The notes beneath the pieces are model-generated. The model saw only the letters and a list, made by a program, of their open reading frames with translations. It ran no database searches and had not been told where the DNA came from. A DNA stretch of 64,000 nucleotides from Escherichia phage OSYSP: sequence record MF402939; one strand, given 5' to 3'. Position 1 is the stretch's first letter; every line of letters starts with the position of its first letter. Shown here piece by piece: positions 30,378-47,844 of this stretch. The position numbers and the translations under genes were made by a program.

Positions 30378-30859
30378 TACTTCTTACCTCCAGTAGCTAG
30401 GGAAGTAATTAAGTCCATGTAGTTTTGATCCCCAGCTCCAGCAATAATATTATTCTGGATGTTGGTCTGATTGGCTGGAGTACGGGCTGCTGCCTTCACT
30501 TTCTCCAGTTCTACCATCATTTTCATTTCTTCCATCTTCATCTTGTGTGCCTTCCAGAGAATGTTCATAATATCCTGGTCAGAACCCATGCCGGTTTCTT
30601 CTAGTTCCTCCAGCTTACGCTTGATAACTTCATCCAGAACACCAAATAAACGATCCCTATTACGGAAACCACTCTCCATAAAAATATCATTTAAGTAGTT
30701 CTTAACTTCACTACGATTCATAATATCTCGGAAAGCAATTTCTGACATTCCAAGACTACGTGCGGCAGAAGGCACATCGCTGCCACACTGTAAATAAGCT
30801 TCAATCACATCCATCCCCTCAGGGGACATAAGATCTGGTACTAATACATCATTTGCCAT
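30377..30859 (-). CDS. Terminase small subunit (putative)
   Basis: 160 aa directly upstream of TerL; N-terminal HTH-like [15 protein letters not shown]; Met/Glu-rich coiled coil. Confidence 0.6.
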
Positions 30860-30869
30860 ATTTCCTCCT

Positions 30870-32657
30870 TTAGGTAAGGCGTTGAACTGTTACTCTTAAT
30901 CTCGGTAGGAAAATAGCTGCAGCCTCATCAGCGTGAATAATTACGCCCAATTCAGCATTACCATTTCCTAGATTTTTAATAGTATAAATATATCCGTTTC
31001 TTCTAAATGTTAACTCATCAGGTCTACTTGCCCAAGTTTGAGTATAGCTGTATGCAGTAGTGGAGTGATAAGGGACTAAGTATCCAGGAGGTAAGGTTAA
31101 TATTTGATGGAATATTCCATCACCTTCCGTGTAACTATGCTGTCTTCTTCCTTGTACTTGCCAAGCAACACCACCATATGTGCGTATAGCTCCTCCTGCG
31201 GTATTAATATTCCCCATGATAACTTCAGTAGTTAATATTACTGTTGCGTTAGCGTTAGGCAATCCTAATCCTATGGTGGCCAAAGCTCTATAGTAGTTAC
31301 CTGCTCCAGGATATGTTGGAGTTATATCATCGCCAACGTAAGTGCTAGCAACATTATTAGGAAATAGTCTTAAGGGTACAGTACTAGGACTCCACACAGC
31401 TCCATGCTCATTACCTATAGTGTTATTACTTGAGTTTACGTACCATTGCTTACCCGCTCCGAATTTGTAAATACTAATTTGAGACTTAGCCCCTCCATAA
31501 TCTACGGGAGACCATAAAGATCCATTACTAGATCCTACAATTTCACAGCGCGCAGTAGTATCCCCGAAGGCTCCAGTGTACGCTGCGTTATTTCCAATGT
31601 ACTCCATATCTGGCCTATAGCCTAAGTTACCAAAAGCATTTTGGTTGATAAACTTATATCCAGTATTTGGTAAACTAACCCCTTTTATAGTAAAATTAGA
31701 TGGAGTTATAAGTATATCTGACCCAGTAAATGGATTACCGGATACGCCCATATTACCATTAGAGTACCTTAGATTAAGTACATACCAAATAACTTTGGTA
31801 GGTGTAATATTATAACCATCCTGCACATATACTTTCTTAGCGGCCTGTGCTGCTAGATTAGATGTTGAACCTTTACATATATAAACCTTATCAGGGTAAG
31901 TAGGAGATTGGTACAATAAGTTAACATTATCGGGTACTGTGCCTTTTTTACCTACGTAACTTCGTATATTAGAGTTACAAACGTAAAAACAATTATGCCC
32001 TCTATGGGCGGCCCCTATAGGAGCTTGCCAGTTAGGATGCCAGTAGTCAGCATTACCACCGTCTATAGGTACTGTAGACGCTCCCGCTGGAAATCCTGCT
32101 AAAGTCCATGCCCTACCTATAGCCTCACCAGCATATGCTCCTCCCGGCCTATATAAATTAAACCCGGAGGCTTGAGATATAGTACCTCCTGTACCTTGCC
32201 TAGCAATTGATTCTTCATGGCCTAAACCAGAGTTATAAATATAGGTGCCATGTGCTAAACTATTACCTGATGCAAAAGCTGACGTAAGACCTACTTCTGC
32301 ACCTGCCCTACCAATAGGCGGATCTTCAAAAAATGTAGTAAATTGACCAACTTGAGATTGAGTACCATTAAGAAAAGCCCTATGAGTACCATTAATCTCA
32401 ATAGCAGTTAGTATAACTCTACCTGGGTCATTGGATTTAATATTTATTATGTCAGAAGGCATCTGACATACAAAAAACCCATTTCCGGCATTACCTAGCC
32501 CAGCCTCGTAAGTACCATCAACTAGGACAAATGGCATATCACTATGAAAAATACTATTGGCATTTGGACTATAGTGACGATTAATGTCACCCCCAGATTC
32601 AGTATTTAAAGATAGTACGGTCTTACCATCGCTATACTTTCCAGCGAAAAAACCCAT
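30870..32657 (-). CDS. Receptor-binding tail protein (T5 pb5-like)
   Basis: 595 aa; Gly/Asn/Tyr-rich; divergent from and adjacent to a lipoprotein gene exactly as the T5 oad-llp pair. Confidence 0.7.
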
Positions 32658-32682
32658 ATAATCTCCTATTATAAAAATGTAT

Positions 32683-32711
32683 TTGCTTTTATCCCTCTAT
32701 TTTGCTATAAT
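32683..32711 (+). promoter_or_regulatory. Strong early promoter for llp (TTGCTT, 17 bp spacer, TATAAT, then AGACTCATAAATTAGA)
   Basis: Hexamers and start region read directly; strong resemblance to T5 PN25 architecture as remembered. Confidence 0.65.
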
Positions 32712-32742
32712 AGACTCATAAATTAGAAATGGAGAGATAAAT

Positions 32743-33009
32743 ATGAAAAAGTTTGTGATTGCACTAGTTGCCGCAGTTATGTTGTCTGGTTGTGCACCTG
32801 CCCCCAAACCATTTTGTACGGGATTTGTAAAATCTTTTGGCGGTGCGGGAGAGGAGCATTACGGCCTCAAGGTTCAAAAAGTTCGTATTAAGGGAGATCG
32901 CTTTCCAGTAGTACAGCTCCGTACTAAGTTTGGGTGGTGGGATCTCAGTCAGTTTGACCTTAAATACGGTGATTGTAAATTTAAACTAGAGCAATCTAAC
33001 TACCTGTAA
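32743..33009 (+). CDS. llp: Lytic-conversion lipoprotein Llp-like (receptor-blocking, superinfection exclusion)
   Basis: Signal peptide plus lipobox LSGC; 88 aa; divergent neighbour of the receptor-binding protein gene. Confidence 0.75.
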   Translation: MKKFVIALVAAVMLSGCAPAPKPFCTGFVKSFGGAGEEHYGLKVQKVRIKGDRFPVVQLRTKFGWWDLSQFDLKYGDCKFKLEQSNYL

Positions 33010-33122
33010 TTAGTATAAAGCAAAAAGACATCCAAGTAAACTAAATTTTTTATTTCTTGGACGGTATACTGGCAGAAACCACTATATAAGAAAAGTAGAA
33101 GTCCTTCTAGGAAGTCGCAAGC

Positions 33123-33314
33123 ATGGTTGGTTATGCACAAACTATAAAATATTTTAAATACCACACTTATAGGAGCATGAAAGATATGTCAAACAAAAGA
33201 AAGAGTAGGCGCGGAGAAGTGTACGATAGTTGGATTAATAGTTTTGGATTCGGAACTATCCTATTCTTTATTTTCGTAGGTTTTTGGTTAGCAGCTATGG
33301 CGGGGTGGATTTAA
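33123..33314 (+). CDS. Small membrane protein (63 aa)
   Basis: C-terminal hydrophobic helix ILFFIFVGFWLAAMAGWI; AGGAAG RBS; first gene of a four-gene overlapping operon. Confidence 0.5.
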   Translation: MVGYAQTIKYFKYHTYRSMKDMSNKRKSRRGEVYDSWINSFGFGTILFFIFVGFWLAAMAGWI

Positions 33315-33421
33315 TGGAATGGGTAATTATTGCGTTGCTAGGGATTGTGATTATTGGGCAATGTATTTTAGATAATCACTTAGCTAGAATTGAAACTTTA
33401 CTAACGGAGAAACGTAAATGA
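33314..33421 (+). CDS. Small membrane protein (35 aa)
   Basis: ATG overlaps previous stop (TAATG); hydrophobic N-terminus WVIIALLGIVIIG; not in the ORF track because under 60 aa. Confidence 0.4.
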   Translation: MEWVIIALLGIVIIGQCILDNHLARIETLLTEKRK

Positions 33422-33612
33422 TGGAAGTAGTAGCTACACTAATAGTAATACTAGTCTGGGCAACTTTCATTGTTTCTTATAACGCGTATGTTCGCCTAAA
33501 AACTCTAGAGGCCCAGGTAAAGCAGCAACAATTTGCACTAGAAAAATTAGTAGAGCTTCAACGCTGTGATAGTACCCGTATTCTGCAAATTGAGAGGGAA
33601 TTAGATGTTTAG
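33418..33612 (+). CDS. Small membrane protein (64 aa)
   Basis: ATG overlaps previous stop (ATGA); N-terminal TM helix followed by coiled-coil segment. Confidence 0.5.
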   Translation: MMEVVATLIVILVWATFIVSYNAYVRLKTLEAQVKQQQFALEKLVELQRCDSTRILQIERELDV

Positions 33613-33850
33613 TATTATAATTGCTTTTATTATCGGGATACTCACGGGAGTTTTCGGAATGACTGCGGCAATCAACAAGCATCGTAAATATATTGCGGAA
33701 GTATCGCGGGAGATTGCGGAAAGGGAGCGGAAGTTTGATGAGAAACGTGCGGAGTTCGAACGAGAGTGGTCGGACGGTTCTCGGGCGTCGCGGAAGAGAT
33801 TCCGTGAGTTCAGACCAGAATACAGGTTTGATGACCCTTCTATGCGCTAA
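33605..33850 (+). CDS. Small membrane protein with charged C-terminal tail (81 aa)
   Basis: GAGAGGG RBS; N-terminal TM helix IIIAFIIGILTGVFGM; Arg/Glu-rich C-terminus. Confidence 0.5.
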   Translation: MFSIIIAFIIGILTGVFGMTAAINKHRKYIAEVSREIAERERKFDEKRAEFEREWSDGSRASRKRFREFRPEYRFDDPSMR

Positions 33851-34002
33851 TTTGACTTTTGCCAATTTCTTTGGATTACGTACGCGTGGGTGTGTCCAGT
33901 GGCCCCCCAGATGAGAATGAGTCTCATTACCGCCTGGTACTTAGCAGGCTAATAGTCCCGGCATGTTATCATTACACACCGGGACTATTTCAACTTTAAT
34001 TA

Positions 34003-34737
34003 CTACGCAACTTTTAATTTCTCAATATATTGTTGCGGGCTGCAACTATATTCTGCGCGTTCTTCTTCGGTCATACCTTCCCAACATAATTGCAGGCGGT
34101 CGGCTAGGAACTGATAATCATTATCATCCTCAAGAGATTCATCGATAAAGGTTTCACCTATCAATGTAACCCCAATCGATAGAATATCGTTAACGGCTTG
34201 TGCGTCCAGCGTTTTAAATCCGTATGATGCCGCCGCTGATAGCACGCCTTTATGATCATCAATCATCGTGAAATCAGCGTTCGGATATAATTGTTTAAAT
34301 AACTCAAAGTAATGGCTTTTATAAATAGCGTCTTTGCTGTGGTATATTTCGCTAACTTTATCAGCCTCAAAATATTTGTGTAGTGTATCGCGGGAAAATA
34401 CACGGATATTACTATCCCCACGCCCTCGCAATCCTTGTTTACGCAAATAATAATAATCCGACTTGCTCATCAGTCGAGCGGTGCAAATAATGTTTAATGT
34501 ATTTGCGTCATTCATGCACTGGCGCATATATGTAACAAGGGGCAATAAAGTATCTTGCATTATTAAATCATGTTTGCAGGCTTCATTTTTATACTTATTT
34601 AAATCTAAATTGCCCTCGCTATCAAAGCAAGGCGCTACACGATGGAAAGAATTAATGATAGTGCCGTCCAGATCCCAAATCATGACGCGGGAAATATGCG
34701 GGAAATTACGGGTAATATTCATTTTAACTTGATTCAT
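34003..34737 (-). CDS. dmp: HAD-family 5'-deoxynucleotidase (T5 Dmp-like)
   Basis: HAD motif I IWDLDGTI near N-terminus; start chosen at MNQVK (GGAGAA RBS 9 nt upstream) giving 244 aa; the track ORF extends to 34779. Confidence 0.65.
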   Translation of the reverse strand: MNQVKMNITRNFPHISRVMIWDLDGTIINSFHRVAPCFDSEGNLDLNKYKNEACKHDLIMQDTLLPLVTYMRQCMNDANTLNIICTARLMSKSDYYYLRKQGLRGRGDSNIRVFSRDTLHKYFEADKVSEIYHSKDAIYKSHYFELFKQLYPNADFTMIDDHKGVLSAAASYGFKTLDAQAVNDILSIGVTLIGETFIDESLEDDNDYQFLADRLQLCWEGMTEEERAEYSCSPQQYIEKLKVA

Positions 34738-34817
34738 TTTGTTACGTTCTCCATTAAAGGGATTTAGTTTATCCAGCATTGCCCGCTATTTATCAGCGGG
34801 CAATAATAAATCAACTA

Positions 34818-35210
34818 TTAAAGACCATAAGCCAACGCATCAGCGATAAAACTAATATCTTCACCTGATACGCTGGAACGAATCCCCGCACAAGTATATA
34901 CTTTTGCGCTGATCAATTGATCATCGAGGCAAGCGGGGCAAGGCGCGACAACTGCAAAGGCTAGGCCGGATTTTACGGCGTCGATGATAATCGTTTCTTG
35001 TTTCACAGTATCAACATAAACACCTTTTGCTTTAATATGGCTGGTTAGTTTACCTTGCATATATGCAAAGGTAGTAACCTGCAAAGCGTCATTAAAATCT
35101 AATAGGTCATCAATAACGTGCCCCGCCTCGACGTGGTAACGTTCACCATTAGAATAAACCAGAACAATTGAGGACTGAGCGCGATCGAATGGAATATTTT
35201 GCTTTTTCAT
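34818..35210 (-). CDS. Hypothetical pre-early protein (130 aa)
   Basis: GGAG RBS; CPAC motif; no family recognised. Confidence 0.5.
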   Translation of the reverse strand: MKKQNIPFDRAQSSIVLVYSNGERYHVEAGHVIDDLLDFNDALQVTTFAYMQGKLTSHIKAKGVYVDTVKQETIIIDAVKSGLAFAVVAPCPACLDDQLISAKVYTCAGIRSSVSGEDISFIADALAYGL

Positions 35211-35248
35211 ATTTATAAAACTCCAATTAGTTTAATAATGGATTTAAT

Positions 35249-35506
35249 TTATTTGATAATAATCTGCATCTGGTACGGCGTTAATTCACCGTTTACGGGT
35301 AAATTATTATCGCTCAGCCACTCATAAAAAGCGTCATCGTCATCAAAAGGAACAATATCGTTATCACGGGAATCGACGGAAATAATACCATCCGTATTAG
35401 TTTTGGCGGCTAGGATAGGCCCGAAGCTGTAAACTTTATCAGATTCCATTTCATCCGGTGAAATGAATACTTTTTCGTCTAATGTTTTGGGAAGAGTAAC
35501 TTTCAT
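35249..35506 (-). CDS. Small acidic protein (85 aa), candidate DNA mimic
   Basis: AGGAG RBS; about 19 Asp/Glu versus 8 Lys/Arg including a DDDD run. Confidence 0.5.
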   Translation of the reverse strand: MKVTLPKTLDEKVFISPDEMESDKVYSFGPILAAKTNTDGIISVDSRDNDIVPFDDDDAFYEWLSDNNLPVNGELTPYQMQIIIK

Positions 35507-35561
35507 TTAATTTAGCTCCTATAATAGCGGCTATATTTCAAGCCGCTAGGGTATTAATTAT

Positions 35562-37226
35562 TTACGCGAAAAATTTACCGTTTTTAAAGTCGATCAAAGT
35601 GCGCTGACCGTTTGCATAGGTAATAACATGCGTTTGCGTCCAGCTTGACGCGCCAACGTTGTAACCCATGTCCAGACTACCAGCTACGCCAGCGGTATAT
35701 ACCCCGCCGTAAATGCTTGCCGTATGAGTATGCCCCGTGTTTAATTTGCCCAATTTCTTAAACTGTTTAGGATTGCCACGGCTGCCGTTAATGCCATTGT
35801 GACCGTGTACGCCGCACTCGATGCCTGCAATTTTAAATGATTGGTCAGTTGTTAGGAAAATGGCGTTAAATTCACAACCTGCAACCTTACGCAGCGCATA
35901 ATCAAGCACGTTGAAAGTATCGTCATGATCACCGATTGCCGCGTAAATTGCAGCATTTAGGCGGTGATATAGTTCCGCGTTTGCGGGATCGTCTTTAATG
36001 TTAGCATTACGATCATCAAGCCAACGGGATAGCGCTAAATCGTGGTTTGATTCCACGATGATTGTTTGAGAAAAATCGCGCTCCATTGACTCCAGCACGC
36101 GCCCCGTATCGATGAGATCATCCAGAACCTTATCACGTCCGGCGGCGTATTGTTTTGCTAGGAATACACCCGAAGCGCGGTTGTGATGGTTGCGGGATGT
36201 AAAATCATGCACGTCATGAATAAACTGATATTTAGGCTTGAGAATATCAAGCAAGCTATTTTCGCCAGCCCATGACGCAACGGCGCAATCGTCATCTAAT
36301 TTTTCGGCGTGAATATCGCCATATTGCAAGCCTAAAACATGCCCCGATGTTTCATAACATCCGGCGGGAGTGGCGCAAATATTCAAATCGTAAAACACGC
36401 CGCTTTCGTCCATCGTTTCAAGCTGGCGAACAAAAAATTCTCCGTCTTCGTCAAACTCAACAACAAGCGCACCGAAATTATGCAGCGCCTCGGCCTTTTG
36501 TCCTGCTTTCTGCTGGATGTAATTTTTTAGGGTTGCCGTTCCAGTTGAATACATACGACGCACTACTTCACCTTTTAAAGCTGGCACGCTTTCGGCGGTA
36601 ATTTTAGCGTGACCAATTGCCAGACCTTCCAGATTAAGCGCCGTTGCAGTTTCAGCGAATCCAGAAAGCGGATAATCTGCGGTTGGCAAAACGTTAATTT
36701 CAGCCATGAAAGCAAAACGGCGGTTATTTAAAAACACGTTTTTATTGCAGATATATTTGTCAAATGCGGAATCATATTTTATTCCTTCTGCACCCTCGCC
36801 ATTTTGAAAACCGTTTTTGTTATAAATAAACTTGCTAACCAGCAAATCAGCGCCGATATATTTAGCAAATTGCTCCAGTGAGGCTAAAAAGTTTTTATGC
36901 GGGAAAGTATTATTCTGAATCGACGTAATAATAAAGCGTTTACCCTGCTTTACTTCCCATTGCTCAACCGTGCTAGAAACAATCCCCGCCGCTTCTGGAC
37001 GCTCATCGTTTTTAATGGCTTTTGCTACTTTCGCCGCTTTCGGTTTAGCTGGTTTATTTGCTTCCAACCAGTCGCAGATAGCGGTCGAGTGTTTTGTTGT
37101 ATCGTAGACCGCTTTTGATATATCGTCGCAGACCTCCAGTTTAGTAGCGCGCAGACGTTTACCATAGAAATTAAAGTCAGCGGCCATTTTCAGGATAACG
37201 GTTTGTTTTTCTGCGGAAATAATCAT
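35562..37226 (-). CDS. A1: A1-like pre-early protein with metallophosphoesterase motifs
   Basis: 554 aa (T5 A1 about 556); calcineurin-like motifs GDIH, HDVHD, ESNHD, GHTH; sits beside an A2-like gene. Confidence 0.75.
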   Translation of the reverse strand: MIISAEKQTVILKMAADFNFYGKRLRATKLEVCDDISKAVYDTTKHSTAICDWLEANKPAKPKAAKVAKAIKNDERPEAAGIVSSTVEQWEVKQGKRFIITSIQNNTFPHKNFLASLEQFAKYIGADLLVSKFIYNKNGFQNGEGAEGIKYDSAFDKYICNKNVFLNNRRFAFMAEINVLPTADYPLSGFAETATALNLEGLAIGHAKITAESVPALKGEVVRRMYSTGTATLKNYIQQKAGQKAEALHNFGALVVEFDEDGEFFVRQLETMDESGVFYDLNICATPAGCYETSGHVLGLQYGDIHAEKLDDDCAVASWAGENSLLDILKPKYQFIHDVHDFTSRNHHNRASGVFLAKQYAAGRDKVLDDLIDTGRVLESMERDFSQTIIVESNHDLALSRWLDDRNANIKDDPANAELYHRLNAAIYAAIGDHDDTFNVLDYALRKVAGCEFNAIFLTTDQSFKIAGIECGVHGHNGINGSRGNPKQFKKLGKLNTGHTHTASIYGGVYTAGVAGSLDMGYNVGASSWTQTHVITYANGQRTLIDFKNGKFFA

Positions 37227-37322
37227 ATTAATAAAACTCCATTAAAGGGATTAAAAACGTTTGTTATTGGCAAATATTGCCAAATATAACGCCTTGAATA
37301 ATAGGCGTTATAATTTGCAACA

Positions 37323-37520
37323 TTAATTTAAAGGCATAAGGCTAGAACTAACACCACAAGCAACGGCGGCAATAAAACAAATCAGACCTAAACGCTTTGC
37401 CAATTTAGACTTACGTTTAAAATAATATGAGTCTAAATCATTTTGAAAATAAGCGAATAATAACGAGGCCGCCATAATAAATAAGCCTAGAATGAGGGAT
37501 TCAGTAGGGTAAAAGATCAT
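37323..37520 (-). CDS. Small membrane protein (65 aa)
   Basis: GGAG RBS; two hydrophobic helices. Confidence 0.45.
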   Translation of the reverse strand: MIFYPTESLILGLFIMAASLLFAYFQNDLDSYYFKRKSKLAKRLGLICFIAAVACGVSSSLMPLN

Positions 37521-37576
37521 TTTAAAACTCCAGTCAAAGGGAAATTATAGTGGGGAATATTCCCCACTAATTAAAT

Positions 37577-37984
37577 TTATTCGCCTGCGGCTTGTTTTAC
37601 TTCATCGGCAACGCCTAACAGTTGCGCCACGGCGTCCAGTGTTTCAAGTTTTGCACTTTCCAGACTTGCCAGATCATCGGCGTCTTTGATAATGCCGGAA
37701 TCAATAGCATGTTTAGCGATAACGCGTACATAGTGAGCTTTGCGGATTGAGCTACCGCCGCCAACTTTGCGCGGCTTATCGCTTTTCTGATACGCTTTCG
37801 CGCTGGTCAATTTTGACCGAACGGATACGGGAGAAGCCGCGCCCACTGCTTTTGCAATCTCTTTTAAACCGTAGCTATTTGCGAAATCTAAACCGTTTTC
37901 ATTGATTAACTGCTGATACATGGAAACGGCTTTTTGGGTGTTTTCTTCATTCCAAGCAAATTTTGCGGTTTTAACGTTAGTCAT
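37577..37984 (-). CDS. A2: A2-like pre-early DNA-binding protein
   Basis: 135 aa; GGAG RBS; basic central region; immediately upstream of the A1-like gene. Confidence 0.6.
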   Translation of the reverse strand: MTNVKTAKFAWNEENTQKAVSMYQQLINENGLDFANSYGLKEIAKAVGAASPVSVRSKLTSAKAYQKSDKPRKVGGGSSIRKAHYVRVIAKHAIDSGIIKDADDLASLESAKLETLDAVAQLLGVADEVKQAAGE

Positions 37985-38082
37985 GGTAAAAACTCCTATT
38001 AGTTTAATTTAAGGGATAAGATTAACATAGTGTTAATCATTATATTCCCCATATTTCAGAGGAATATAAAGTTAACACTAAA

Positions 38083-38334
38083 TTATAACACAGCTTCCCA
38101 TTTTTCGTTACGCTGTACAACCTTTACAACGTCGCCGGATTTAACGCGAACGCTAAAAACGGTTTTGCCGTTGTTACTACGTTCATTTTCAGCGTATACC
38201 GCGTCGATTGTATCAAACGGCATAAGCGCCGCACCTTTAATACGTTCGGCTTTTCCGGTTAGTTCATCCGTTTTAGTAACGAAAGGAATAAAAACGGATT
38301 GACCAATTTTAGGCGCGGTAATAACGTTTTTCAT
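38083..38334 (-). CDS. Hypothetical pre-early protein (83 aa)
   Basis: AGGAG RBS 10 nt upstream; first gene downstream of the divergent control region. Confidence 0.5.
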   Translation of the reverse strand: MKNVITAPKIGQSVFIPFVTKTDELTGKAERIKGAALMPFDTIDAVYAENERSNNGKTVFSVRVKSGDVVKVVQRNEKWEAVL

Positions 38335-38370
38335 AATATAAACTCCTAGTTATTTGGGGATTGTTCCGCA

Positions 38371-38395
38371 TTACCTGCTAGAAAGTAGCAGGTAA
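38371..38395. repeat. Perfect 10-bp-stem inverted repeat TTACCTGCTA-GAAAG-TAGCAGGTAA
   Basis: Read directly; lies 37 bp upstream of the 38083..38334 gene start; no flanking T-run. Confidence 0.6.
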
Positions 38396-39223
38396 TAAGC
38401 AACAATCCGCTCACCGCTATAATCAATTTAAAGAACTCCATGCAGGCCGCTATATCCCAGTTAGGGGGCGGGACACATTATGGTAAGTGCCGACCGTCAG
38501 ATTTTATCAAGTTATCGCTCTTATCGAACTGAGTACATCTTAAAGCCTATCGGCTAGGTTGTCAAACAATTTTTTGCAGTTTTTTATAATTCTCTTTCAA
38601 GTCAATCATAATATTTCGCCAGATCATTTCTAAACCTTGCTGGCGGCCTTTCTTGTACTGCGTGAATCGGTATTTTACCGATCTTTGCGCTACTGTCAAC
38701 AAATTTTTTGTTTTGCTGTCCAGTGCCTTGCTAGGTTTACCAGTGATCAATAAAGTTTGTTTCATATCTGCGATTCCTTATAATGTATAAGTTTACCGCC
38801 GATAGACTTTAAGATGTACCCAATTTTTAAAGAGCGCGGCGGTAAACTTCCCGCCGTGTAGTTCGTCATTGCCGCCCTACGAGATAAATAATAAGGGATT
38901 CACAAAAATGGCGCAACCTTATTTTTGTAAAGAAACGTAAAGACAAATGCCACCGGACACCGTGCGGCGACCTGGGCGCGACGCACTAAAATTAAAAGAA
39001 ACGGGCGCGCGAATACCACAAAACATAGCAGATAGGCAAGTAATTTTTTCATTTATATTTGCTTTGCCCTACTTGACAAAATCTAAAAAACTCGTGGTAG
39101 CGATAAACGAGGGTAGGCAATGCAATGGCATGGCTAAAAACTTCATCGCGTTCTAGGGCGTTTTAGGCGCATTCTAGCCTTGTTGATAACTTATCCCCAG
39201 AAGCAAAAATGAAATTTTCCTAG

Positions 39224-39633
39224 TTATCCACTTGACTTTTATTTTCCAGTGGATAACTACTTATTTTATAAAATAAATTAATTGACTTTTATTTGTTAGT
39301 ATGCGTCGGAAAGATAGCAGACTAATAATTGCTAGGATGATAATCATGCTGGTGGATTGTAACGGCTTAAATTATTAGCAGACTATTAATCACGGAAAAT
39401 CTCATTAGCCAACTAACTATTTCATGATATATAATATACTTATAAATTAAGGAGAAATAATAATTATAAGAAATAATAGCTACAGTAAATATTAACTATA
39501 AGAAACTATCGGCCTAAGTGAGAACCACTATCATTTAAGTTATCCACAACGTTATCCACAGCACAAAATGATTTGACATAATAGGCGGTGATATAAGGAC
39601 TTTTACACAGACTTATCCACAGCTTATCCTACT
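39224..39633. promoter_or_regulatory. Divergent control region with DnaA boxes: inverted pair TTATCCACT/AGTGGATAA (39224-39256), palindrome TTATTTTATAAAATAA, perfect TTATCCACA boxes at 39540, 39552 and 39613
   Basis: Exact matches to the E. coli DnaA box consensus TTATCCACA read directly; duplicated TTGACTTTTATTT on both sides of the palindrome. Confidence 0.6.
39405..39435 (+). promoter_or_regulatory. Candidate promoter for the rightward pre-early operon
   Basis: TATAAT at 39430-39435 followed by ACTTATAAATTAAGGAGA, resembling the other early promoters; -35 is weak. Confidence 0.35.
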
Positions 39634-39914
39634 GTATAAATATACAAGGTAAAAAGGTAGTGTTAACAACTGCAATCAATTTTAAGCGGCCTAAAACGCT
39701 TTCTAACGAGCTAAATGCGGTGGGGTAATATTAAAGTAAAGTCTTCACCCGTCGCCCTGGTGGCTTCACTGTGTTTTGCTCTTTATTGCACCGCTGCGCG
39801 GTTAGCATAAAACTAGGCGCTAGGCAAGGAAAATAAAAAGGTAAAATAATATTTGCCCCTAGAAAGAAAATACCTTTATCATTCACTCACCGATTAACGA
39901 GGGAGGCCGAACAA

Positions 39915-40907
39915 ATGAGGCTTTATAAACCAGATAACGCAACCGTCTTAAAAGGTGCATTGCGCAACCTGCTGGATGGTAGCAGAACAACCAGCATTAA
40001 ACATTTTGTTTTCAATATTGAAACACTTCATCGTAATTTTCTTGATGATTACGATGCTTATAATATGAATAGTTTTCTACCGTTATATAATCAAGGGGCA
40101 ACGCTTGTTTTATATAATCAGGAATCTCACTTGCTTACTAGTCGAGGGCCAGATACTGATTTTATTATAGTGAAAGGCAGTACAGTAAAAGCCTATGATG
40201 CGGGGGCGGGCTTAGAAGTTTTCACGATAGAAAATTATGAGCCTTATGATAAGGATCTTTATGACGTAGAAAATTTTCTCGATTCATTTTGGCGTTATTT
40301 ATCAATTGGGTGGAATCGATCAGATTATCACGGGTATCGTTTTGCGGCTATAATGGCTTTTGATGATAACGGTAATTTTTTGCTACCGTCGGAATTATAC
40401 CCGTATGTATATAATGATTTAATAGAGGAGGCTGGTTTTACTTTCTGGAAAGATGAAGATCAGCCTATTGACAACACGGAAAAACATGCTGTAAATTCTA
40501 ACACTCAAAGCGTTAACACTCAAACTACTGAAAATAAAGGGAAAAATACTATGACCAAGATCGCTAACATCGTTGCCGCTAATAAATCCGCTGTTGTAAA
40601 CGCTGCAAAACTGGAAGCGGGTAAAATTGCACTGACTCAAATCACGAAAGTAGCGGCTAAAAAACCGCCGTTTATTATCAAGGGTTATATTGATACGCCG
40701 ATTGGTCGGGTAGTGATTGCCAACCTGCTGAGTGTAGCGGTTGACCAGTACGCCCCGAGTAACCAGAAAGCGAAAGCGGTAGCAGGAGCGGCTATGGAAG
40801 CGGCAATGCTAGAAATGGTGCAAAGTTTTAACATCGCTGAAATGATCGATGAAATGGTAAAAGGTATCGATATTTCTACTTTCACCGTTAACAACGAAAG
40901 CGAGTAA
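39915..40907 (+). CDS. Hypothetical pre-early protein (330 aa), two-domain
   Basis: Strong RBS GAGGGAGG; N-terminal domain, Asn/Thr/Gln-rich linker, Ala/Lys-rich C-terminal domain; no family recognised. Confidence 0.6.
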   Translation: MRLYKPDNATVLKGALRNLLDGSRTTSIKHFVFNIETLHRNFLDDYDAYNMNSFLPLYNQGATLVLYNQESHLLTSRGPDTDFIIVKGSTVKAYDAGAGLEVFTIENYEPYDKDLYDVENFLDSFWRYLSIGWNRSDYHGYRFAAIMAFDDNGNFLLPSELYPYVYNDLIEEAGFTFWKDEDQPIDNTEKHAVNSNTQSVNTQTTENKGKNTMTKIANIVAANKSAVVNAAKLEAGKIALTQITKVAAKKPPFIIKGYIDTPIGRVVIANLLSVAVDQYAPSNQKAKAVAGAAMEAAMLEMVQSFNIAEMIDEMVKGIDISTFTVNNESE

Positions 40908-40971
40908 TAATATTAAGCGGGGATTGTTACCCCGCTTTAATGTTCCCTTGTTAATTAATAGGAGGCTAATT

Positions 40972-41466
40972 ATGTCAGAAGAAAAATATGGCTTCTCACT
41001 GGGAGAAGTGAGCACGGCTAAACACGATATGATCATTTTGGTCGATTGTCATACTGGCTATTGCGGAGAAGGCTGGACGGAGGAACATTTTGTTCCAGCT
41101 GGCTGTAATCTGGACGCTTTCGCTCAGGAAATGGCTGTTGATAATGCTTCTCGTTTCGGTAGCGATGGCTATGAAGACGAGGAAACTGGCGAATGGTATG
41201 AAAATGAAAACGTATACGCTAGTCTTTATCATTATCAATTAAGTAAATCCGGCGCATATGTAAACGGCGGCGATCCTATTAATTCCATCATGAGATTAAT
41301 TATTAAACATGGTGGCGTCGAGATAATTGATAACAAAGCGGTAATATACGCAAACCGATTAAAACAGCTTGTTTATATTCCTGATAATACCCGATGGGAT
41401 GAATATGCTGTTTTGCATGACGAATTGAAACGATGTTTCAATATTGAATCCTTACAAGTAGTCTAA
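40972..41466 (+). CDS. Hypothetical pre-early protein (164 aa)
   Basis: Start at MSEEKYG with RBS AGGAGG (the track ORF begins at 40924); acidic, Cys-containing. Confidence 0.55.
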   Translation: MSEEKYGFSLGEVSTAKHDMIILVDCHTGYCGEGWTEEHFVPAGCNLDAFAQEMAVDNASRFGSDGYEDEETGEWYENENVYASLYHYQLSKSGAYVNGGDPINSIMRLIIKHGGVEIIDNKAVIYANRLKQLVYIPDNTRWDEYAVLHDELKRCFNIESLQVV

Positions 41467-41571
41467 TGTAAAGTTTTGTAAAGGTCGCCTTTTATGGTGG
41501 CCTTTTTTGTTATAATGCTTTTACACCAAAACGGTGGATTGAAAATTTTCCCAAAAATTTGGAGGCTTAAA

Positions 41572-41802
41572 ATGGTTGCATACTCTTCTGCTAGTCATCT
41601 GTTTACCGCGCAAGGCTGGGTATCTAATCGCGTCATCATTCATGAAATGGTGCAGGAGTTCGGCATTGCTAAAACTTACACTACCATTCAGGAACTATAC
41701 AACGCCGATAAAATCGATCAGCAAACGGCTGGCTTTTTGCTGGATACCCTGAAGGCGGAACATTGCACCAAAAAACAAGCCGCTAAAATTGTTTTAATGT
41801 AA
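41572..41802 (+). CDS. Hypothetical pre-early protein (76 aa)
   Basis: Start at MVAYSSA with GGAGG RBS (the track ORF begins at 41494). Confidence 0.5.
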   Translation: MVAYSSASHLFTAQGWVSNRVIIHEMVQEFGIAKTYTTIQELYNADKIDQQTAGFLLDTLKAEHCTKKQAAKIVLM

Positions 41803-41848
41803 TTAATAACGGGGCGTTATTTTCGCCCCGCTAACTAGGAGAATGAAA

Positions 41849-41998
41849 ATGGTTATTTTTCGAGCTATTCTGGCAGGTATCTTGGGCGCTATTTTATCGT
41901 TGTTTGCAATAGCTTTCGGTGTTCACGCCGTTATTGTCGGCGCGGGTATCGCCGTTTTTTCTTATCTGCTGGGCTGCATGATTAGTAAAGGAGAATAA
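41849..41998 (+). CDS. Small membrane protein (49 aa)
   Basis: AGGAG RBS; two hydrophobic stretches; below the ORF-track length cutoff. Confidence 0.45.
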   Translation: MVIFRAILAGILGAILSLFAIAFGVHAVIVGAGIAVFSYLLGCMISKGE

Positions 41999-42000
41999 AA

Positions 42001-42213
42001 ATGATCCGCAACGTTTCTCTTGCTCGTTCGAAAGGCTTTAAGCTGGTGGACGTTAACACGTTCGAGCGTGAAGATTGTAAAATCGAATATGTAGCGCGGA
42101 ATAAAAACGCCTTTCGTGTTACCGAGAAAAAATTCGATAAGCGCGGCAACGTGGTCGCTGAAACGGTTAAACATTTTGCCACCTTTTACGCTGCGTTTCG
42201 TGGGGTACTATGA
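42001..42213 (+). CDS. Hypothetical pre-early protein (70 aa)
   Basis: AGGAG RBS; basic; ATG 3 nt after the previous stop. Confidence 0.5.
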   Translation: MIRNVSLARSKGFKLVDVNTFEREDCKIEYVARNKNAFRVTEKKFDKRGNVVAETVKHFATFYAAFRGVL

Positions 42214-42335
42214 AAAGCGTTATCATTATTAGCCTTGCAATGGTTGGCGGTTTTACCGCCACCTTATTTAAAAATGATCCCCTTTTACTGGGGATTTTTA
42301 TGCTTTTATCTGGCTATCTGATTGGGAGGTTATAA
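42210..42335 (+). CDS. Small membrane protein (41 aa)
   Basis: ATG overlaps previous stop (ATGA); hydrophobic throughout. Confidence 0.4.
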   Translation: MKSVIIISLAMVGGFTATLFKNDPLLLGIFMLLSGYLIGRL

Positions 42336-42336
42336 A

Positions 42337-42681
42337 ATGGTAATTTATGAAGGCAATCGTTTTGTTGCTAATTGCCGTCCTGCATTGCTAGCAAATTACT
42401 TAAATCAGCTTTCACCAGCTTATAAGGGCGTTATTAATATTTATGAGGGCAAAGTGCATTATAAGGTTAATGCGGTCGTTGCCCGTGAACTAGCGTTTCA
42501 ATTTTTGACCTTTGCATCTTGTGACGTTCAGGTTATGGGTGAGGCGTTAATTGCAGAAAATGAAGATGATTTTATTAACATTTTTCGCAAGATATGCACC
42601 GAGCGCCTGATCATGAAAGGCGCTTATATTCAATCCACTGCGGATAGTATTGAAACAGCGTTTCGAAAGGTGGCGCAATGA
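42337..42681 (+). CDS. Hypothetical pre-early protein (114 aa)
   Basis: Start at MVIYEGN with GGGAGG RBS (the track ORF begins at 42322). Confidence 0.5.
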   Translation: MVIYEGNRFVANCRPALLANYLNQLSPAYKGVINIYEGKVHYKVNAVVARELAFQFLTFASCDVQVMGEALIAENEDDFINIFRKICTERLIMKGAYIQSTADSIETAFRKVAQ

Positions 42682-42836
42682 AAAAGTTTTTAATAGCTGG
42701 CATGTTTCCGTTGTTGCCTTATGTAATTTGCTGGGCTTTATATGCTCATGGTGCTAGTGTTCCCGGTGTGGCTTCATTTGGTGTATCGGCGGGCTTTCTA
42801 GCTGGACTATTGGCAAGCGTATATTTACGCAAATAA
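42678..42836 (+). CDS. Small membrane protein (52 aa)
   Basis: ATG overlaps previous stop (ATGA); two hydrophobic helices. Confidence 0.4.
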   Translation: MKKFLIAGMFPLLPYVICWALYAHGASVPGVASFGVSAGFLAGLLASVYLRK

Positions 42837-42855
42837 TTAATAACGGAGCGTTATT

Positions 42856-43050
42856 ATGAGCAATAAAATTGTTGTAACCAAAATCAGTACAATGGTTGAT
42901 GTTTTTTACGTGCCCGATACGCCGGAGAATCGGCGAGCGGTCGAGCGTGGCGAGTATGATAAAGTGATTTATGATCACGATGGTTACTATCAACATTTGG
43001 TGGATTCCTACGGGGAGGAGGAAAAAATCACGCATCGACTACCAGACTAA
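42856..43050 (+). CDS. Hypothetical pre-early protein (64 aa)
   Basis: Last gene of the rightward operon; preceded by palindrome AATAACGGAGCGTTATT; acidic. Confidence 0.5.
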   Translation: MSNKIVVTKISTMVDVFYVPDTPENRRAVERGEYDKVIYDHDGYYQHLVDSYGEEEKITHRLPD

Positions 43051-43090
43051 TAATCACGGGGCGCAACTACCAGGGAGTGCCCCCAATTCT

Positions 43091-43113
43091 CAAATGAGAA
43101 TCATTCTCATTTG
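43091..43113. repeat. Perfect 23-bp palindrome CAAATGAGAATCATTCTCATTTG
   Basis: Read directly; same core as the 43447-43608 repeat family. Confidence 0.7.
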
Positions 43114-43128
43114 ACTGCGCCCGCGATG

Positions 43129-43187
43129 GTTAGCCTGCTAATGATTAGGGTGTTACGTGTCGCCTTGTGTGATCGTTAGCAGGCTAA
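43129..43187. repeat. 13-bp inverted repeat GTTAGCCTGCTAA / TTAGCAGGCTAAC with 33-bp spacer
   Basis: Read directly; could form a large hairpin. Confidence 0.6.
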
Positions 43188-43334
43188 CTAATTTTTAAGC
43201 CTCCTCCAATTTTGCCCTTGTTTTAGTACCCCCACCAAAATTAAACGCGTTAGAATGCGATCTAGGACGTTTTAGCGGTATACTAGAATTATTCACTACA
43301 TAGGAATACTGTATATTTATACAGTAGGATATCC

Positions 43335-43416
43335 TGTGGATAAGTCTGTTAATAACGCCTCAAAATGGCTAGGATTCTGTCAAATCAAATCGTGCTGTTA
43401 ATAAGTCTGTGGATAA
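43335..43416. promoter_or_regulatory. Two consensus DnaA boxes (TGTGGATAA) in repeated context CTGTTAATAAGTCTG
   Basis: Exact reverse-complement matches to TTATCCACA at 43335-43343 and 43408-43416. Confidence 0.55.
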
Positions 43417-43446
43417 CTTAAATAACAGTGTTTCTCACTTCCATTC

Positions 43447-43608
43447 TTAAATGAGAATCATTATCATTCGCAGTCCACTGTCTAACCGATAATCATTTCC
43501 TTTCTTAAATGAGAATCATTTCACTTTTTGAATAGTTCTCATTTCCTTTCTTAAATGAGAATAATTATCATTCGCATTCCACTTCTTAAATGATAATGAT
43601 TCTCATTC
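43447..43608. repeat. Five copies of 24-bp motif CTTAAATGAGAATCATTATCATTCG (one inverted), Fur-box-like
   Basis: Copies at 43447, 43504, 43550 and inverted at 43584, plus palindrome at 43091; core matches 15 of 19 positions of the E. coli Fur box GATAATGATAATCATTATC. Confidence 0.6.
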
Positions 43609-43637
43609 AAAGTCGCAGGGCAATTGCCCTGCGCTTT

Positions 43638-44239
43638 TGTGCAAATCCGACATTGCTCCACGGGTGTTACGTGCGGGCATGTATGTGCGAATCCGACAAT
43701 TTTTGGTAGTGTGCGAATCCGACCCTAAAAACTTTTGTGATGTGCGAATCCAACAATGAATTTTCCCAAAAACTCCAGCAATCACGAACTGCGTTCGAAT
43801 CCTGTGGGATATGTGCAAATCCGACACGGTTTTTCTAGGATTAAGATGTGCAAATCCGACAAGATTTTTGTGACTTCGATGAGAGGGTGTGTGATTGTAT
43901 AGGTTTGAGGAGAAGATGAGAGAGCGAGAAAAGTTTGGGAGGCTAGAAGGATGCGGGCGCAGGATTGGTGCGGAGCACCTGATTTGCGGGGATTTTGGGG
44001 AAGAGTTGAGATAATTTGGGAAGATTTGAGATAGGTGCAGAAAAAGTAAAATTTTATTAGCAAAATGGGGCAAAATAGCTTGACAAGTGAAAATTTCTGT
44101 GGCTCTAAAAACTCAGGCAATCATGGGCCTTCGGCCCGAAATAATGCTGCCATTTTCAAGAGATTATATGTTCCTAAAAACTTAGGCGTTTGTGCAAATC
44201 CGACCATAAATTTCTAGGAACACAATGTACAAATCCGAC
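43638..44239. repeat. Nine direct copies of 15-bp motif TGTGCRAATCCGACA
   Basis: Copies starting near 43638, 43684, 43711, 43741, 43812, 43847, 44190, 44225 and a degenerate one at 43785; motif has partial dyad symmetry. Confidence 0.65.
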
Positions 44240-44280
44240 AGTAATTTCTGGAAATGTGTTTTCAAAAAATGTCTCCTAGA

Positions 44281-44340
44281 AATAACCGCCCTCCCTATAA
44301 CCGCCCTGTATTAACCGCCCTGTATTAACCGCCTATTGCT
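44281..44340. repeat. Four tandem copies of about 14 bp AACCGCCCTNTATT
   Basis: ATAACCGCCCTCCCTATAACCGCCCTGTATTAACCGCCCTGTATTAACCGCCTATT read directly. Confidence 0.6.
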
Positions 44341-44761
44341 AGAGTTTCTAGGAATATGAAAACCGCCTGAGTTGACTAGAGAAACAGATTTAAAGTTTAA
44401 TGTAAACTCTAGAGTTAGTGCTCAACTATTCCTAGAAACTTAGGAGTCTAGAAGAAAGTGTTGTGCCATCCTAGCAGATGAGCGGCAACAGGTGTATCAT
44501 CTTGAACACAAATATTGCCTTTAAATATTTTTAGTTATTTAAAAGTAAATATACCCCCATTTCATGAGAGCTTACTCGTGGGGCGCGTGAGTATTACGGA
44601 AGACTTAGTAATTAGATCTATACTCGTGCTGTCGCAACGTATAGACGTAATACTAAGTGTAATAATCATCGCCCCTAGAGTTCAAAACAAGAGTTGTTTT
44701 TAATCTATGAGATTATTATAACATGTGCCGCAATGAGTTGTCAAGAAGATTTTGTTAATGT

Positions 44762-45118
44762 TTATACATCTCCTTCGAAATTGGTATTGGGATCGTAAAT
44801 CTTTTTGGCTCCTGTATTTAATAGGAATCGTTCTGCAAGTTGTGGGTGAATATCAAAGAACTCTGTACATCCTTCGAATCCCTTTAAATTACAGCGGTAT
44901 TTCTTAAAGTAGATATGAGCAGCGGCTTCTAGATCTCTAGGGTTATGGGTTTCATAGATTCCATACACATATAAATCGTCAAAACCTCGATAGACTATCT
45001 TATCTAAGTTTAGAGTTTGAATCCTATTATGTGGATTCATGCTAATACCGATCTTTGTTCTCTTAGGGATCTTTGTCAGATCCCTGTTCGCAAGAATATA
45101 TACTTTATATAGTGACAT
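44762..45118 (-). CDS. Possible GIY-YIG-like (T5orf172-type) domain protein
   Basis: 118 aa; N-terminal YKVYIL...KIGIS pattern reminiscent of GIY-YIG-like folds; weak assignment. Confidence 0.4.
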   Translation of the reverse strand: MSLYKVYILANRDLTKIPKRTKIGISMNPHNRIQTLNLDKIVYRGFDDLYVYGIYETHNPRDLEAAAHIYFKKYRCNLKGFEGCTEFFDIHPQLAERFLLNTGAKKIYDPNTNFEGDV

Positions 45119-45836
45119 TCTTTCTAGCCTTTAGATAGATTCCTTTAGATGCTAAATAAATATATGTAGCAAGGAATGAAGATGTAGATCCTGTTTCTTC
45201 AAGAGTAATAGATCCCTTTGCATAACGCTTGGTTCTAGGAGCCTGGTTAAGCACAAGCGCAGTGAGACTACCTAATCCTAGAGCATCCATTAGACGTTTG
45301 AAGGAGTCCTTTTCATCATGGATAGCGTATAGGATATAATCTTCCGCTGTAGTAAGTTCTATGTCACGATGATGTGCCACTGCAATCCGTGCTACTACAG
45401 CTCCAATCGTTCTATAAATATCTTCAAACGTGATACTAGTTTCAAATGCTAACGCTGGAAGATGATCGAACTTACATTTCTTAGGCGGAATGTATAATTG
45501 TTCTGGATATGCTTCTAATGCTTCTCTAGCGGATGTTTCTCTATAAGCCGGGAGAGGTTCATCAATGATAACATGGATATAGTTTCCCATGTGACCTTTA
45601 GCAGTGGGGTCTAAAGACTTGAGGAGTTTATTCATATCAACGTAAGAATAAGCAAGGTCGGCTTTTGCTGCTTTGTTATCATACTTAATCTTACCACCCT
45701 CCCATCTAGCTGGGAACATTTCGCAAACAAACATTACTGCATGTTTCTCTTCAGTGGTTAAATCAGAGAAACAGCGATGATCAGCCCCCTTAGCGAGGGC
45801 TAGAATATTCTTAAACTTTACAGCCAAATCTTTCAT
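45105..45836 (-). CDS. Hypothetical early protein (243 aa)
   Basis: Co-directional, overlapping early gene array; no motif recognised. Confidence 0.5.
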   Translation of the reverse strand: MKDLAVKFKNILALAKGADHRCFSDLTTEEKHAVMFVCEMFPARWEGGKIKYDNKAAKADLAYSYVDMNKLLKSLDPTAKGHMGNYIHVIIDEPLPAYRETSAREALEAYPEQLYIPPKKCKFDHLPALAFETSITFEDIYRTIGAVVARIAVAHHRDIELTTAEDYILYAIHDEKDSFKRLMDALGLGSLTALVLNQAPRTKRYAKGSITLEETGSTSSFLATYIYLASKGIYLKARKNVTI

Positions 45837-46456
45837 TAATTACCTCTCTTATCTTCATTAATGACAGCTCCCAACGCTTCCATAATTGCATCTTCTAAAC
45901 TTCCATGTTTACTAGGATTATTAAAATGAATAGTACAAACAGAACCCCTAGAAACTCCAGCATCCGCAGGTGCTACGCTTCGCATATCAGATTCAAAAGC
46001 TTCTTGGGTATGTTGCAACTGTACAGAAGGGCCGTAATCTTCACCAAACTTATATGACTTCGTACTACTTACCACACCCCCACAAGGAACATTGTGCATA
46101 TCCGACATTAATCTTTTATCGGAGTTATTCAGCATTGAGATTGTCCCTGACTGCCATGGATCTCTAATAGTCACTGGAGTACTAGGGCGGTTCACCTCAG
46201 TCTTCACAAGTTTGTACCCTGCATCGATTAGTGCATTAATCAGGTTATCCGCCGGGATGCGAGCCGTACCAAAAATCTTACGAGCGTTGTTGAGCCTACC
46301 TTCAAAATCTTTACATGCTTTAATATTAGTGTGTGCAAAGGTTAGCTTCATAGATTTGAACTGTACAGTGGCAGTTAAATCTTTAAAGCTATAATCCCAC
46401 GTATTCAGTTCATGATCTGGTACTACTTGAATAGATTGTTGTGCATATAAAGTCAT
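45836..46456 (-). CDS. Hypothetical early protein (206 aa)
   Basis: Co-directional early gene array; no motif recognised. Confidence 0.5.
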   Translation of the reverse strand: MTLYAQQSIQVVPDHELNTWDYSFKDLTATVQFKSMKLTFAHTNIKACKDFEGRLNNARKIFGTARIPADNLINALIDAGYKLVKTEVNRPSTPVTIRDPWQSGTISMLNNSDKRLMSDMHNVPCGGVVSSTKSYKFGEDYGPSVQLQHTQEAFESDMRSVAPADAGVSRGSVCTIHFNNPSKHGSLEDAIMEALGAVINEDKRGN

Positions 46457-46641
46457 TATTTATTCCCCAGTTTGTCTAACAGCTTATGAGCTGCTAGATT
46501 ATATTGTTTAAGTTCACGATTAAGAATTTGGTTCTCACACTTTAACTCTAAATTCTTATTATTAAGAATATTGCAGATTAGTAGAAGTGCTAGTATAACT
46601 AGCAGAGAACCTACGAGCATTAAAAGAAAAAGAGTTTCCAT
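46456..46641 (-). CDS. Small membrane protein (61 aa)
   Basis: N-terminal TM helix then coiled coil. Confidence 0.45.
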   Translation of the reverse strand: METLFLLMLVGSLLVILALLLICNILNNKNLELKCENQILNRELKQYNLAAHKLLDKLGNK

Positions 46642-46874
46642 TATTTAACTCCCATGTAACGTTTGAGATATATGATGAAGTCTTCTGCTGTATGCTCTAC
46701 GCTACCTTGAGCTACAAATAGCTTGAGGGCTTCACGTTGTAGTTTAAGAGCAGCCAACTCACCACGTAATTTTATTAGATCTTCTGCTAGTTCTCTAGCT
46801 CTACGCATAATAGCAAAAGATACAAGTACTACGATGAATAACATAACTACTAAAATAATTGCTATGATTTCCAT
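46641..46874 (-). CDS. Small membrane protein (77 aa)
   Basis: N-terminal TM helix IIAIILVVMLFIVVLVSFAI then coiled coil. Confidence 0.45.
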   Translation of the reverse strand: MEIIAIILVVMLFIVVLVSFAIMRRARELAEDLIKLRGELAALKLQREALKLFVAQGSVEHTAEDFIIYLKRYMGVK

Positions 46875-47152
46875 ATTAACATCCAGCTTTTATCACACAT
46901 TTGGGCATGATCTATCAGTTCATTCATTGATGTATTGTTATCATAAATGCACTCTAGTATATACCTTCTGTCAAATTCGTCAACCAAATATTCTACATTA
47001 TTTATTACTACTTTATACAGATCTGGGACTAGAGAGCATGTATTTGGTATGGGGCGACTGCTTAAGTCTATTTCATTATAGCCCCATGTTGTTTTAAATA
47101 GTTTGTTACTAAGTGCTGCTAATGGATTTGACCATATAATATAGCTACTCAC
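46862..47152 (-). CDS. Hypothetical early protein (96 aa)
   Basis: Overlapping gene array. Confidence 0.45.
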   Translation of the reverse strand: MSSYIIWSNPLAALSNKLFKTTWGYNEIDLSSRPIPNTCSLVPDLYKVVINNVEYLVDEFDRRYILECIYDNNTSMNELIDHAQMCDKSWMLIWKS

Positions 47153-47591: not shown

Positions 47592-47592
47592 A

Positions 47593-47796: not shown

Positions 47797-47812
47797 TTGA
47801 AGTTCCTTGAAA

Positions 47813-47844
47813 ACACAAAAGGCCAGAACAATTAAGTCCTGGCC
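47813..47844 (-). terminator. Rho-independent terminator
   Basis: Hairpin GGCCAG-loop-CTGGCC followed on the - strand by TTTTGTGTTTT. Confidence 0.6.

Follow-up and report, generated by a model that had tools for sequence, protein, structure and literature searches.

T5-like phages with full-length records carry their pre-early genes in long direct terminal repeats, which measure 10,219 bp in T5 (NC_005859), 9,743 bp in BF23 (OR083247), 10,299 bp in MM-2 and 10,111 bp in NBEco002, the two copies being 100% identical within each of these records. Many T5-like sequences in GenBank place the pre-early genes dmp, A1 and A2 in the late region, a placement attributed to the way assembly software handles large terminal repeats (Davison 2020 preprint); for genomes of this kind assemblers choose a random first base, and coverage between the two termini is double the average (PhageTerm paper). 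The short terminal repeats of T7 and T3 pose the same problem of a merged repeat, an arbitrary first base and doubled coverage (PhageTerm paper), but they span 160-231 bp as against the ~10 kb considered here and involve neither gene content nor two-step injection. Here we analyse a 64,000-nt stretch of Escherichia phage OSYSP (record MF402939; the whole stretch is referred to as the window), in which dmp, A1, A2 and their neighbours lie between the late and early modules. We consider it very likely (probability roughly 0.92) that positions 33893-44105 correspond to a long direct terminal repeat of T5 type that appears a single time in a record opened elsewhere.

A single repeat copy joins opposite ends of the genome

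To describe the surroundings of the block, genes were identified by tblastn of T5 reference proteins against the window and assigned to families by PHROGs. The predicted repeat and its flanks comprise the following features.

32743-33009, + strand: llp-type receptor-blocking lipoprotein of BF23 type (88/88 identical to the BF23 receptor-blocking protein; PHROG 1119, Cor superinfection exclusion; lipobox, Pfam LPAM_1)
33186-33850, + strand: four small membrane-protein genes, homologues of T5.159-T5.162 (84-98% identity by tblastn)
33893-44105, + strand: predicted long direct terminal repeat (first-step-transfer DNA), 10,213 bp, one copy in the window (boundary homology to T5, BF23, MM-2 and NBEco002)
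44106-44761, no strand: unique left-arm non-coding DNA from the repeat to the first early gene (colinear with T5 10220-10608 and with BF23 beyond 9743)

The two flanks come from opposite genome ends. In full-length T5, BF23 and chee24 (MF431730), the counterpart of the block's left flank immediately precedes the right repeat, and that of its right flank immediately follows the left repeat. Alignments to these three phages run unbroken from the late genes across the left boundary into the repeat, and from the repeat across the right boundary into the early arm, with window 43886-63884 colinear with T5 10000-29269, including lys/holin and the tRNA cluster. The packaging enzyme is likewise that of T5, its large subunit being identical at 437/438 positions and its small subunit at 159/160. 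A search for a second copy of the pre-early block within the window found none. Because a linear genome of the form repeat-early-late-repeat never holds the order late-repeat-early, the single copy stands for two, and the order seen therefore implies either that the copies were merged and the resulting circle opened elsewhere, or that the template was a concatemer. Gene identity, colinearity, conserved boundaries and conserved terminase can be read directly from the alignments; the physical ends and the doubled copy number are what we infer from them.

The initial annotation had proposed a merged or permuted terminal repeat, and the flanks, the junctions described below and the T5-like terminase all support that proposal. 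Its gene assignment also holds, with dmp-, A1- and A2-like genes (98.4%, 94.6% and 98.5% identical to T5 by tblastn) lying between llp and the early lysis/tRNA region. The overall order of llp side, pre-early genes and early arm is as it described, but the block does not directly adjoin llp, as homologues of T5.159-T5.162 intervene in 33010-33892. The limits it gave for the block, 33010-44760, must be revised, since they overshoot the repeat placed by homology at 33893-44105 by ~880 bp on the left and by ~655 bp on the right. In T5, BF23, chee24 and MM-2 the T5.159-T5.162-type genes lie outside the annotated right repeat, and the llp-type gene belongs to the right arm, also outside the repeat; by this homology, the DNA separating llp from the repeat (33010-33892) is unique sequence of the right arm.

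Prediction of the physical ends

To place the repeat limits at base level, both ends of five full-length records (T5, BF23, MM-2, NBEco002 and chee24) were compared with the window. The repeat ends of T5, BF23, MM-2 and NBEco002 coincide by homology within 2 nt, and those of BF23 had been set with PhageTerm. In these relatives the left junction reads ...GATTACACATGRAGGTG followed by TGTCCA..., and the right junction reads ...GTGAAAATTYYTGTGGMTC followed by TAAAAACTCAGGCAATCA.... The corresponding sites in the window are as follows.

33874-33912, + strand: predicted left terminus site, ...GATTACGTACGCGTGGGTG / TGTCCAGTGGCCCC..., cut before 33893 (alignment to the right-repeat junctions of T5, BF23, MM-2 and NBEco002)
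44082-44125, + strand: predicted right terminus site, ...GTGAAAATTTCTGTGGCTC / TAAAAACTCAGGCAATCATGG..., cut after 44105

At the left junction the window passes from ...GCGTGGGTG to TGTCCAGTGGCC..., with the repeat starting at 33893, and the repeat side is identical to that of NBEco002. At the right junction it passes from ...TTTCTGTGGCTC to TAAAAACTCAGG..., with the repeat ending at 44105; here the window is identical to T5 over the 33 nt preceding the cut and at least 45 nt following it, at a position also used by BF23, MM-2 and NBEco002. We therefore predict physical ends at 33893 and 44105, with an uncertainty of about 2 nt each. The true ends had initially been described as invisible in such a sequence; they indeed cannot be proven from it, but homology allows them to be predicted this closely.

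Two observations weigh against this placement. First, a 2-nt insertion and several substitutions set the 17 nt just ahead of the predicted left cut apart from the T5, MM-2 and NBEco002 consensus, and a description of the T5 terminase recognition sequence was not found in the literature examined; for these two reasons we place less trust in the left boundary than in the right one. Second, the coverage-defined repeat of chee24 maps to window 33987-43897, limits other than 33893-44105. Repeats in the chee24 family, annotated as 9,968 bp long, thus stop 94 bp inside the left and 208 bp inside the right boundary shared by the other four records. We considered the chee24 limits as a reference and rejected them, since they were drawn with a coarse threshold (>130% of average coverage) and conflict with four mutually agreeing records. 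Both T5-type junction motifs are present in chee24 outside its annotated limits, and the repeats of this family may be under-called.

The same junctions bear on the idea that the genome is linear with a truly internal pre-early block, its termini lying elsewhere because the packaging site has changed or the heads are filled by a headful mechanism. All that speaks for such an arrangement is that the ends are predicted rather than observed and that relatives show a somewhat different sequence immediately before the predicted left cut. Terminase subunits 99% identical to those of T5, a right junction equal to T5's and a left junction whose repeat side equals NBEco002's all argue the other way, as does two-step injection, which needs the pre-early genes and the injection-stop signal (iss) at the entering end; dmp, A1, A2 and iss are all intact. 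We therefore hold an internal block to be extremely unlikely.

Single-copy records among T5-like phages

The layout is a routine and already documented assembly outcome and implies no new biology; what is added here is the base-level prediction of both physical ends. To gauge how common it is, we examined the A1 gene across public records. A1 matches 455 records at 533 places, so that at least 377 records (83%) hold a single copy. Of 60 A1 records sampled at even intervals, 44 were single-copy, often with A1 far from either record end, and the sampled single-copy records were mostly 105-116 kb long, as compared with mostly 118-125 kb for two-copy records. At least 53 records hold late genes, repeat and early genes in one contiguous place. 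For example, vB_Eco_mar004NP2 (LR027384), phC11 (OQ680480) and vB_Sen-E22 (MT311645) show the same contiguous late-repeat-early order; these single-repeat permuted records are ~105-112 kb long, one repeat short, and represent other isolates (~90-93% identical) with no difference in kind.

Such an order could also be real in the template, if the sequenced DNA consisted of replicative concatemers or of circularised intracellular DNA (from infected cells or a metagenome), or if the record were longer than one unit. Concatemer junctions of terminal-repeat phages do hold a single repeat copy (PhageTerm paper), some public relatives exceed one unit (KPP2018, 137,988 bp; GE_vB_N5, 148,669 bp), and metagenome scaffolds carry the same junctions as the window. 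A concatemer template would, however, give the same sequence as a collapsed assembly, nothing in the window favours it, and short-read assembly of virion DNA alone suffices to produce the layout and is its documented common cause (Davison 2020; PhageTerm paper). We regard this origin as improbable, and even were it correct, each end of the virion genome would still carry a repeat copy. The broader proposition that the sequenced DNA is really single-repeat (circular or concatemeric), or that the packaging termini have been relocated in this lineage, leaving the pre-early block non-terminal, appears very doubtful to us; had the termini moved, infection would start without T5-style two-step transfer, though dmp, A1, A2 and iss have been kept.

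Proposed relation of the record to the virion genome

Under the terminal-repeat interpretation, the virion DNA would be linear, starting at about 33893 and running rightwards through the repeat and the early arm, then through the late arm, llp and the four small genes, and closing with another copy of 33893-44105. If infection proceeds as in T5, the left repeat copy would enter the cell first, and DNA transfer would pause at the injection-stop region, at about 43.05-44.1 kb. Host RNA polymerase would then read two divergent pre-early operons from the control region at 38.9-39.9 kb, a leftward operon extending from A2 and A1 through to dmp and a rightward operon from the T5.011 homologue to the T5.017 homologue, whereupon A1 and A2 would permit entry of the remaining genome. 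In replicative concatemers adjacent genome units would share one repeat, with terminase cutting at both boundaries and extension synthesis duplicating the repeat. Shotgun assembly would merge the two identical 10-kb copies into a circular graph, which, opened at an arbitrary point, would yield the late-repeat-early order.

If this is correct, the deposited sequence understates the virion genome by ~10.2 kb and roughly 17-18 duplicated genes, and the coordinate origin of the record is arbitrary. The predicted ends at 33893 and 44105 would let the record be re-oriented and completed ahead of reads. Repeat limits are also needed by work on the first-entering DNA, for example restriction-site counts in first-step-transfer DNA (BF23 study).

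Pre-early genes of the repeat

The genes of the predicted repeat form a leftward and a rightward group.

34003-34737, - strand: dmp, deoxynucleoside-5'-monophosphatase (98.4% identical to T5 Dmp by tblastn; PHROG 415)
34818-35210, - strand: T5.002 homologue, small pre-early gene (tblastn, PHROGs)
35249-35506, - strand: gene of 85 amino acids in common with chee24, between the T5.002 homologue and A1
35562-37226, - strand: A1, DNA transfer and host-DNA degradation protein, putative metallophosphatase (94.6% identical to T5 A1; PHROG 1745, E = 4e-244)
37323-37520, - strand: T5.005 homologue, small membrane protein (65/65 identical to T5.005; PHROG 4820)
37577-37984, - strand: A2, DNA-binding protein required for second-step transfer (98.5% identical to T5 A2; PHROG 1725)
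38083-38869, - strand: homologues of T5.007 (DUF7177), T5.008 (DUF7416) and T5.009 (Pfam, PHROGs, tblastn)
39915-43050, + strand: rightward pre-early operon, with the T5.011 homologue (DUF7566), a gene of 164-180 amino acids, T5.012-T5.015 homologues, a gene of 52 amino acids and the T5.017 homologue

Both order and strand follow T5. The genes dmp, A1 and A2 occupy the left end of the repeat in the order and orientation of T5, the criterion used by Davison (2020), and around them homologues of T5.002, T5.005, T5.007, T5.008, T5.009, T5.011-T5.015 and T5.017 keep the T5 sequence of dmp, T5.002, A1, T5.005, A2, T5.007-T5.009, divergent control region, T5.011-T5.017 and iss. Further likenesses to T5 are both boundary sequences, a terminase 99% identical and a repeat of 10,213 bp compared with 10,219 bp. 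Unlike in T5, the repeat is single and internal in the window, which lacks the HNH gene hegG and homologues of T5.003 and T5.016 and has two extra genes, one of 164-180 amino acids (40924-41466) and one of 52 amino acids; moreover, its T5.011 homologue is only 77% identical, and the adjacent adsorption module is of BF23 type, whereas that of T5 is of FhuA type. The gene at 40924-41466 is common to BF23 and chee24 and missing from T5. The window also resembles BF23 in its repeat ends (homologous within 1 nt), in the identical receptor-blocking lipoprotein, in this shared 495-nt gene and in most of the repeat, which is 91% nucleotide-identical. It differs from BF23 in that the BF23 record shows both repeat copies at its ends and in that BF23 has no 85-amino-acid gene between T5.002 and A1.

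The protein labels given initially, a HAD phosphatase for Dmp and a metallophosphoesterase for A1, are reasonable, though profile searches did not confirm them. The HAD motif DxDxT is visible in the Dmp translation as WDLDGT, and metallophosphoesterase-type motifs GDIH, SNHD and GHTH are visible in the C-terminal half of A1. Searches of Dmp, A1 and A2 against our local Pfam copy, however, returned no match even at E = 10, and phmmer against PDB sequences returned nothing meaningful for the same three proteins. Support for the fold labels comes from the visible motifs, the PHROG names, newer Pfam names on neighbours of identical size in relatives' contigs and the literature, where A1 is termed a putative metallo-phosphatase, both required for the degradation of host DNA and sufficient for it (preprint 10.64898/2026.04.02.716235).

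Sources disagree on which of two neighbouring genes in the rightward operon, 42001-42213 (+ strand) or 42337-42681 (+ strand), encodes the Ung-dependent nickase. The annotation of NC_005859 and PHROG 4227 give this name to the 70-amino-acid T5.014 family, whereas Pfam PF26847 (Phage_T5_AP_Endonuclease) matches the 114-amino-acid T5.015-type protein in related contigs, and nickase activity has been assigned to gene 015 (preprint 10.64898/2026.04.02.716235).

We also considered the DL and DLDR mutants of the 2026 preprint as possible phages with unequal left and right repeats, a reading that was rejected, L and R there denoting halves of the pre-early region.

Control region and injection-stop region

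Two non-coding regions and one nick site were recognised within the predicted repeat.

38870-39914, no strand: non-coding divergent-promoter and repeat region (Davison's repeat regions 1 and 2), undivided
43051-44105, no strand: iss region, repeat region 3 (repeats and DnaA boxes; T5 iss annotated at 9140-10149)
43633/43634, - strand: homologue of the T5 'major single-chain interruption' (nick, T5 9748/9749), at conserved CCCTGCGC / TTTTG (T5 annotation and alignment)

Repeat regions 1 and 2 form one continuous non-coding stretch because hegG, the T5 HNH endonuclease gene, is missing; it gave no tblastn match in the window, and its absence is the usual state in T5-like phages (Davison). This stretch contains inverted repeats I1/I2, direct repeat D14 and an IRC-spacer-IRD element at 39516-39646, which holds four consensus DnaA boxes (39540, 39552, 39601 and 39613). 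The iss region contains an IRD'-spacer-IRC' element at 43310-43440 with paired DnaA/DnaA* boxes, bringing the consensus DnaA boxes in the two inverted-repeat elements to six, followed by two copies of the DRE repeat at 43432-43608 and by DRD repeats (TGTGCRAATCCGAC). Six of the eight DRD copies lie at 43637-43863 and the other two beyond the repeat end, at 44190-44242, overrunning it as they do in T5. The same iss architecture has been described for 25 T5-like phages (Davison 2020 preprint). Judged by sequence, the iss architecture is complete and all cis elements expected of a functional first-step-transfer region are present; the nick position, 43633/43634, is putative and follows from the alignment with T5.

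A scan of the whole window for the E. coli Fur box GATAATGATAATCATTATC, allowing up to 5 mismatches, returned Fur-box-like sites that cluster in the predicted repeat, where 23 of the 26 matches fall (shuffle mean 5.7 for the whole window). Sites within 33913-43610 lie at 33913, 34107-34131, 38026, 41218, 43090, 43447-43471, 43551-43575 and 43586-43610. Those with ≤4 mismatches have counterparts at homologous positions in most or all of the relatives T5, BF23, chee24, MM-2 and NBEco002, with sites at the dmp 3' end (within the coding sequence) and in the iss DRE repeats found in 5/5 relatives and a site just upstream of A2 found in 4/5, MM-2 being without it. At the same threshold of ≤4 mismatches, none was found in 21 kb of the T5 early arm. 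The Davison preprint makes no mention of Fur, and a literature search pairing 'Fur box' with phage T5 found nothing.

Nearest relatives and mosaic structure

A megablast search with 33010-44760 as query against 50,697 phage records matched 496 T5-like records, the top matches showing ~92% nucleotide identity over 94-96% of the query. The wider stretch 26000-50900 found no near-identical record in the same set. On nucleotide identity, then, the source of the window is a T5-like, Tequintavirus-like phage at ~92% from its nearest public relatives. Base composition is even across the region, and the only four tRNA genes detected all lie within 62.4-64.0 kb.

An exact 41-mer taken from 39.3 kb had no match in the viral, genome and metagenome contig collections, nor did exact look-ups of the receptor-binding protein and of the T5.011 homologue return any. 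Looking up the A1 protein led to three metagenome contigs of close relatives. One of these, scaffold L012 (ENA ERZ16268254 scaffold_2573), is 99.88% identical over window 25562-39190 and runs from the late genes through the repeat to >200 nt beyond the predicted right terminus. It lacks window 39191-41326 (IRC-spacer-IRD, the T5.011 homologue and the ORF (open reading frame) of 180 amino acids) and is only 90-95% identical beyond. This pattern points to a recent recombination break within the terminal repeat, and the switch at 39190 implies that the repeat is mosaic among close relatives. The same switch is what could be cited for a chimeric misjoin, in which contigs from two T5-like phages in a mixed sample were combined to create the block. 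Both junctions and the interior are, however, colinear with many independent isolates, and the window contains no ambiguous bases, which leaves a misjoin barely credible beside a collapsed terminal repeat.

Other features of the window

In the adsorption module (30870-33009), the receptor-binding protein is 85% identical to that of BF23 over the first 355 residues and 30% identical to T5 pb5. A module of this BF23 type makes BtuB, not FhuA, the likelier receptor and points to a mosaic in which it is combined with a T5-like terminase.

Just past the predicted right repeat boundary, short direct repeats of AACCGCCCTGTATT and variants occur in 4 copies at 44283-44335, ~180-230 bp beyond it. The first ORF on this side (44762-45118, - strand) encodes 118 amino acids with T5orf172/MUG113 domains. 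Its match to a homing-endonuclease PHROG covers just positions 1-102 out of 236, and the protein may represent a truncated form of such an enzyme. The stretch 44766-45831 has no homology to the corresponding chee24 or T5 genes.

Farther from the repeat, tandem 21-nt repeats (~12 copies) and a 108-nt tandem duplication at 8897-9800 fall within a tail-fibre ORF of 969 amino acids (7053-9962, - strand), where they probably encode a repetitive coiled or collagen-like shaft segment. On the early side, an element of ~70 nt occurs in five copies, 63-73% alike, upstream of early genes (50191, 50699, 58746, 60871 and 63212, - strand). As each contains a TATAAT-like box and a purine-rich leader, these elements look like repeated early promoter/leader units.

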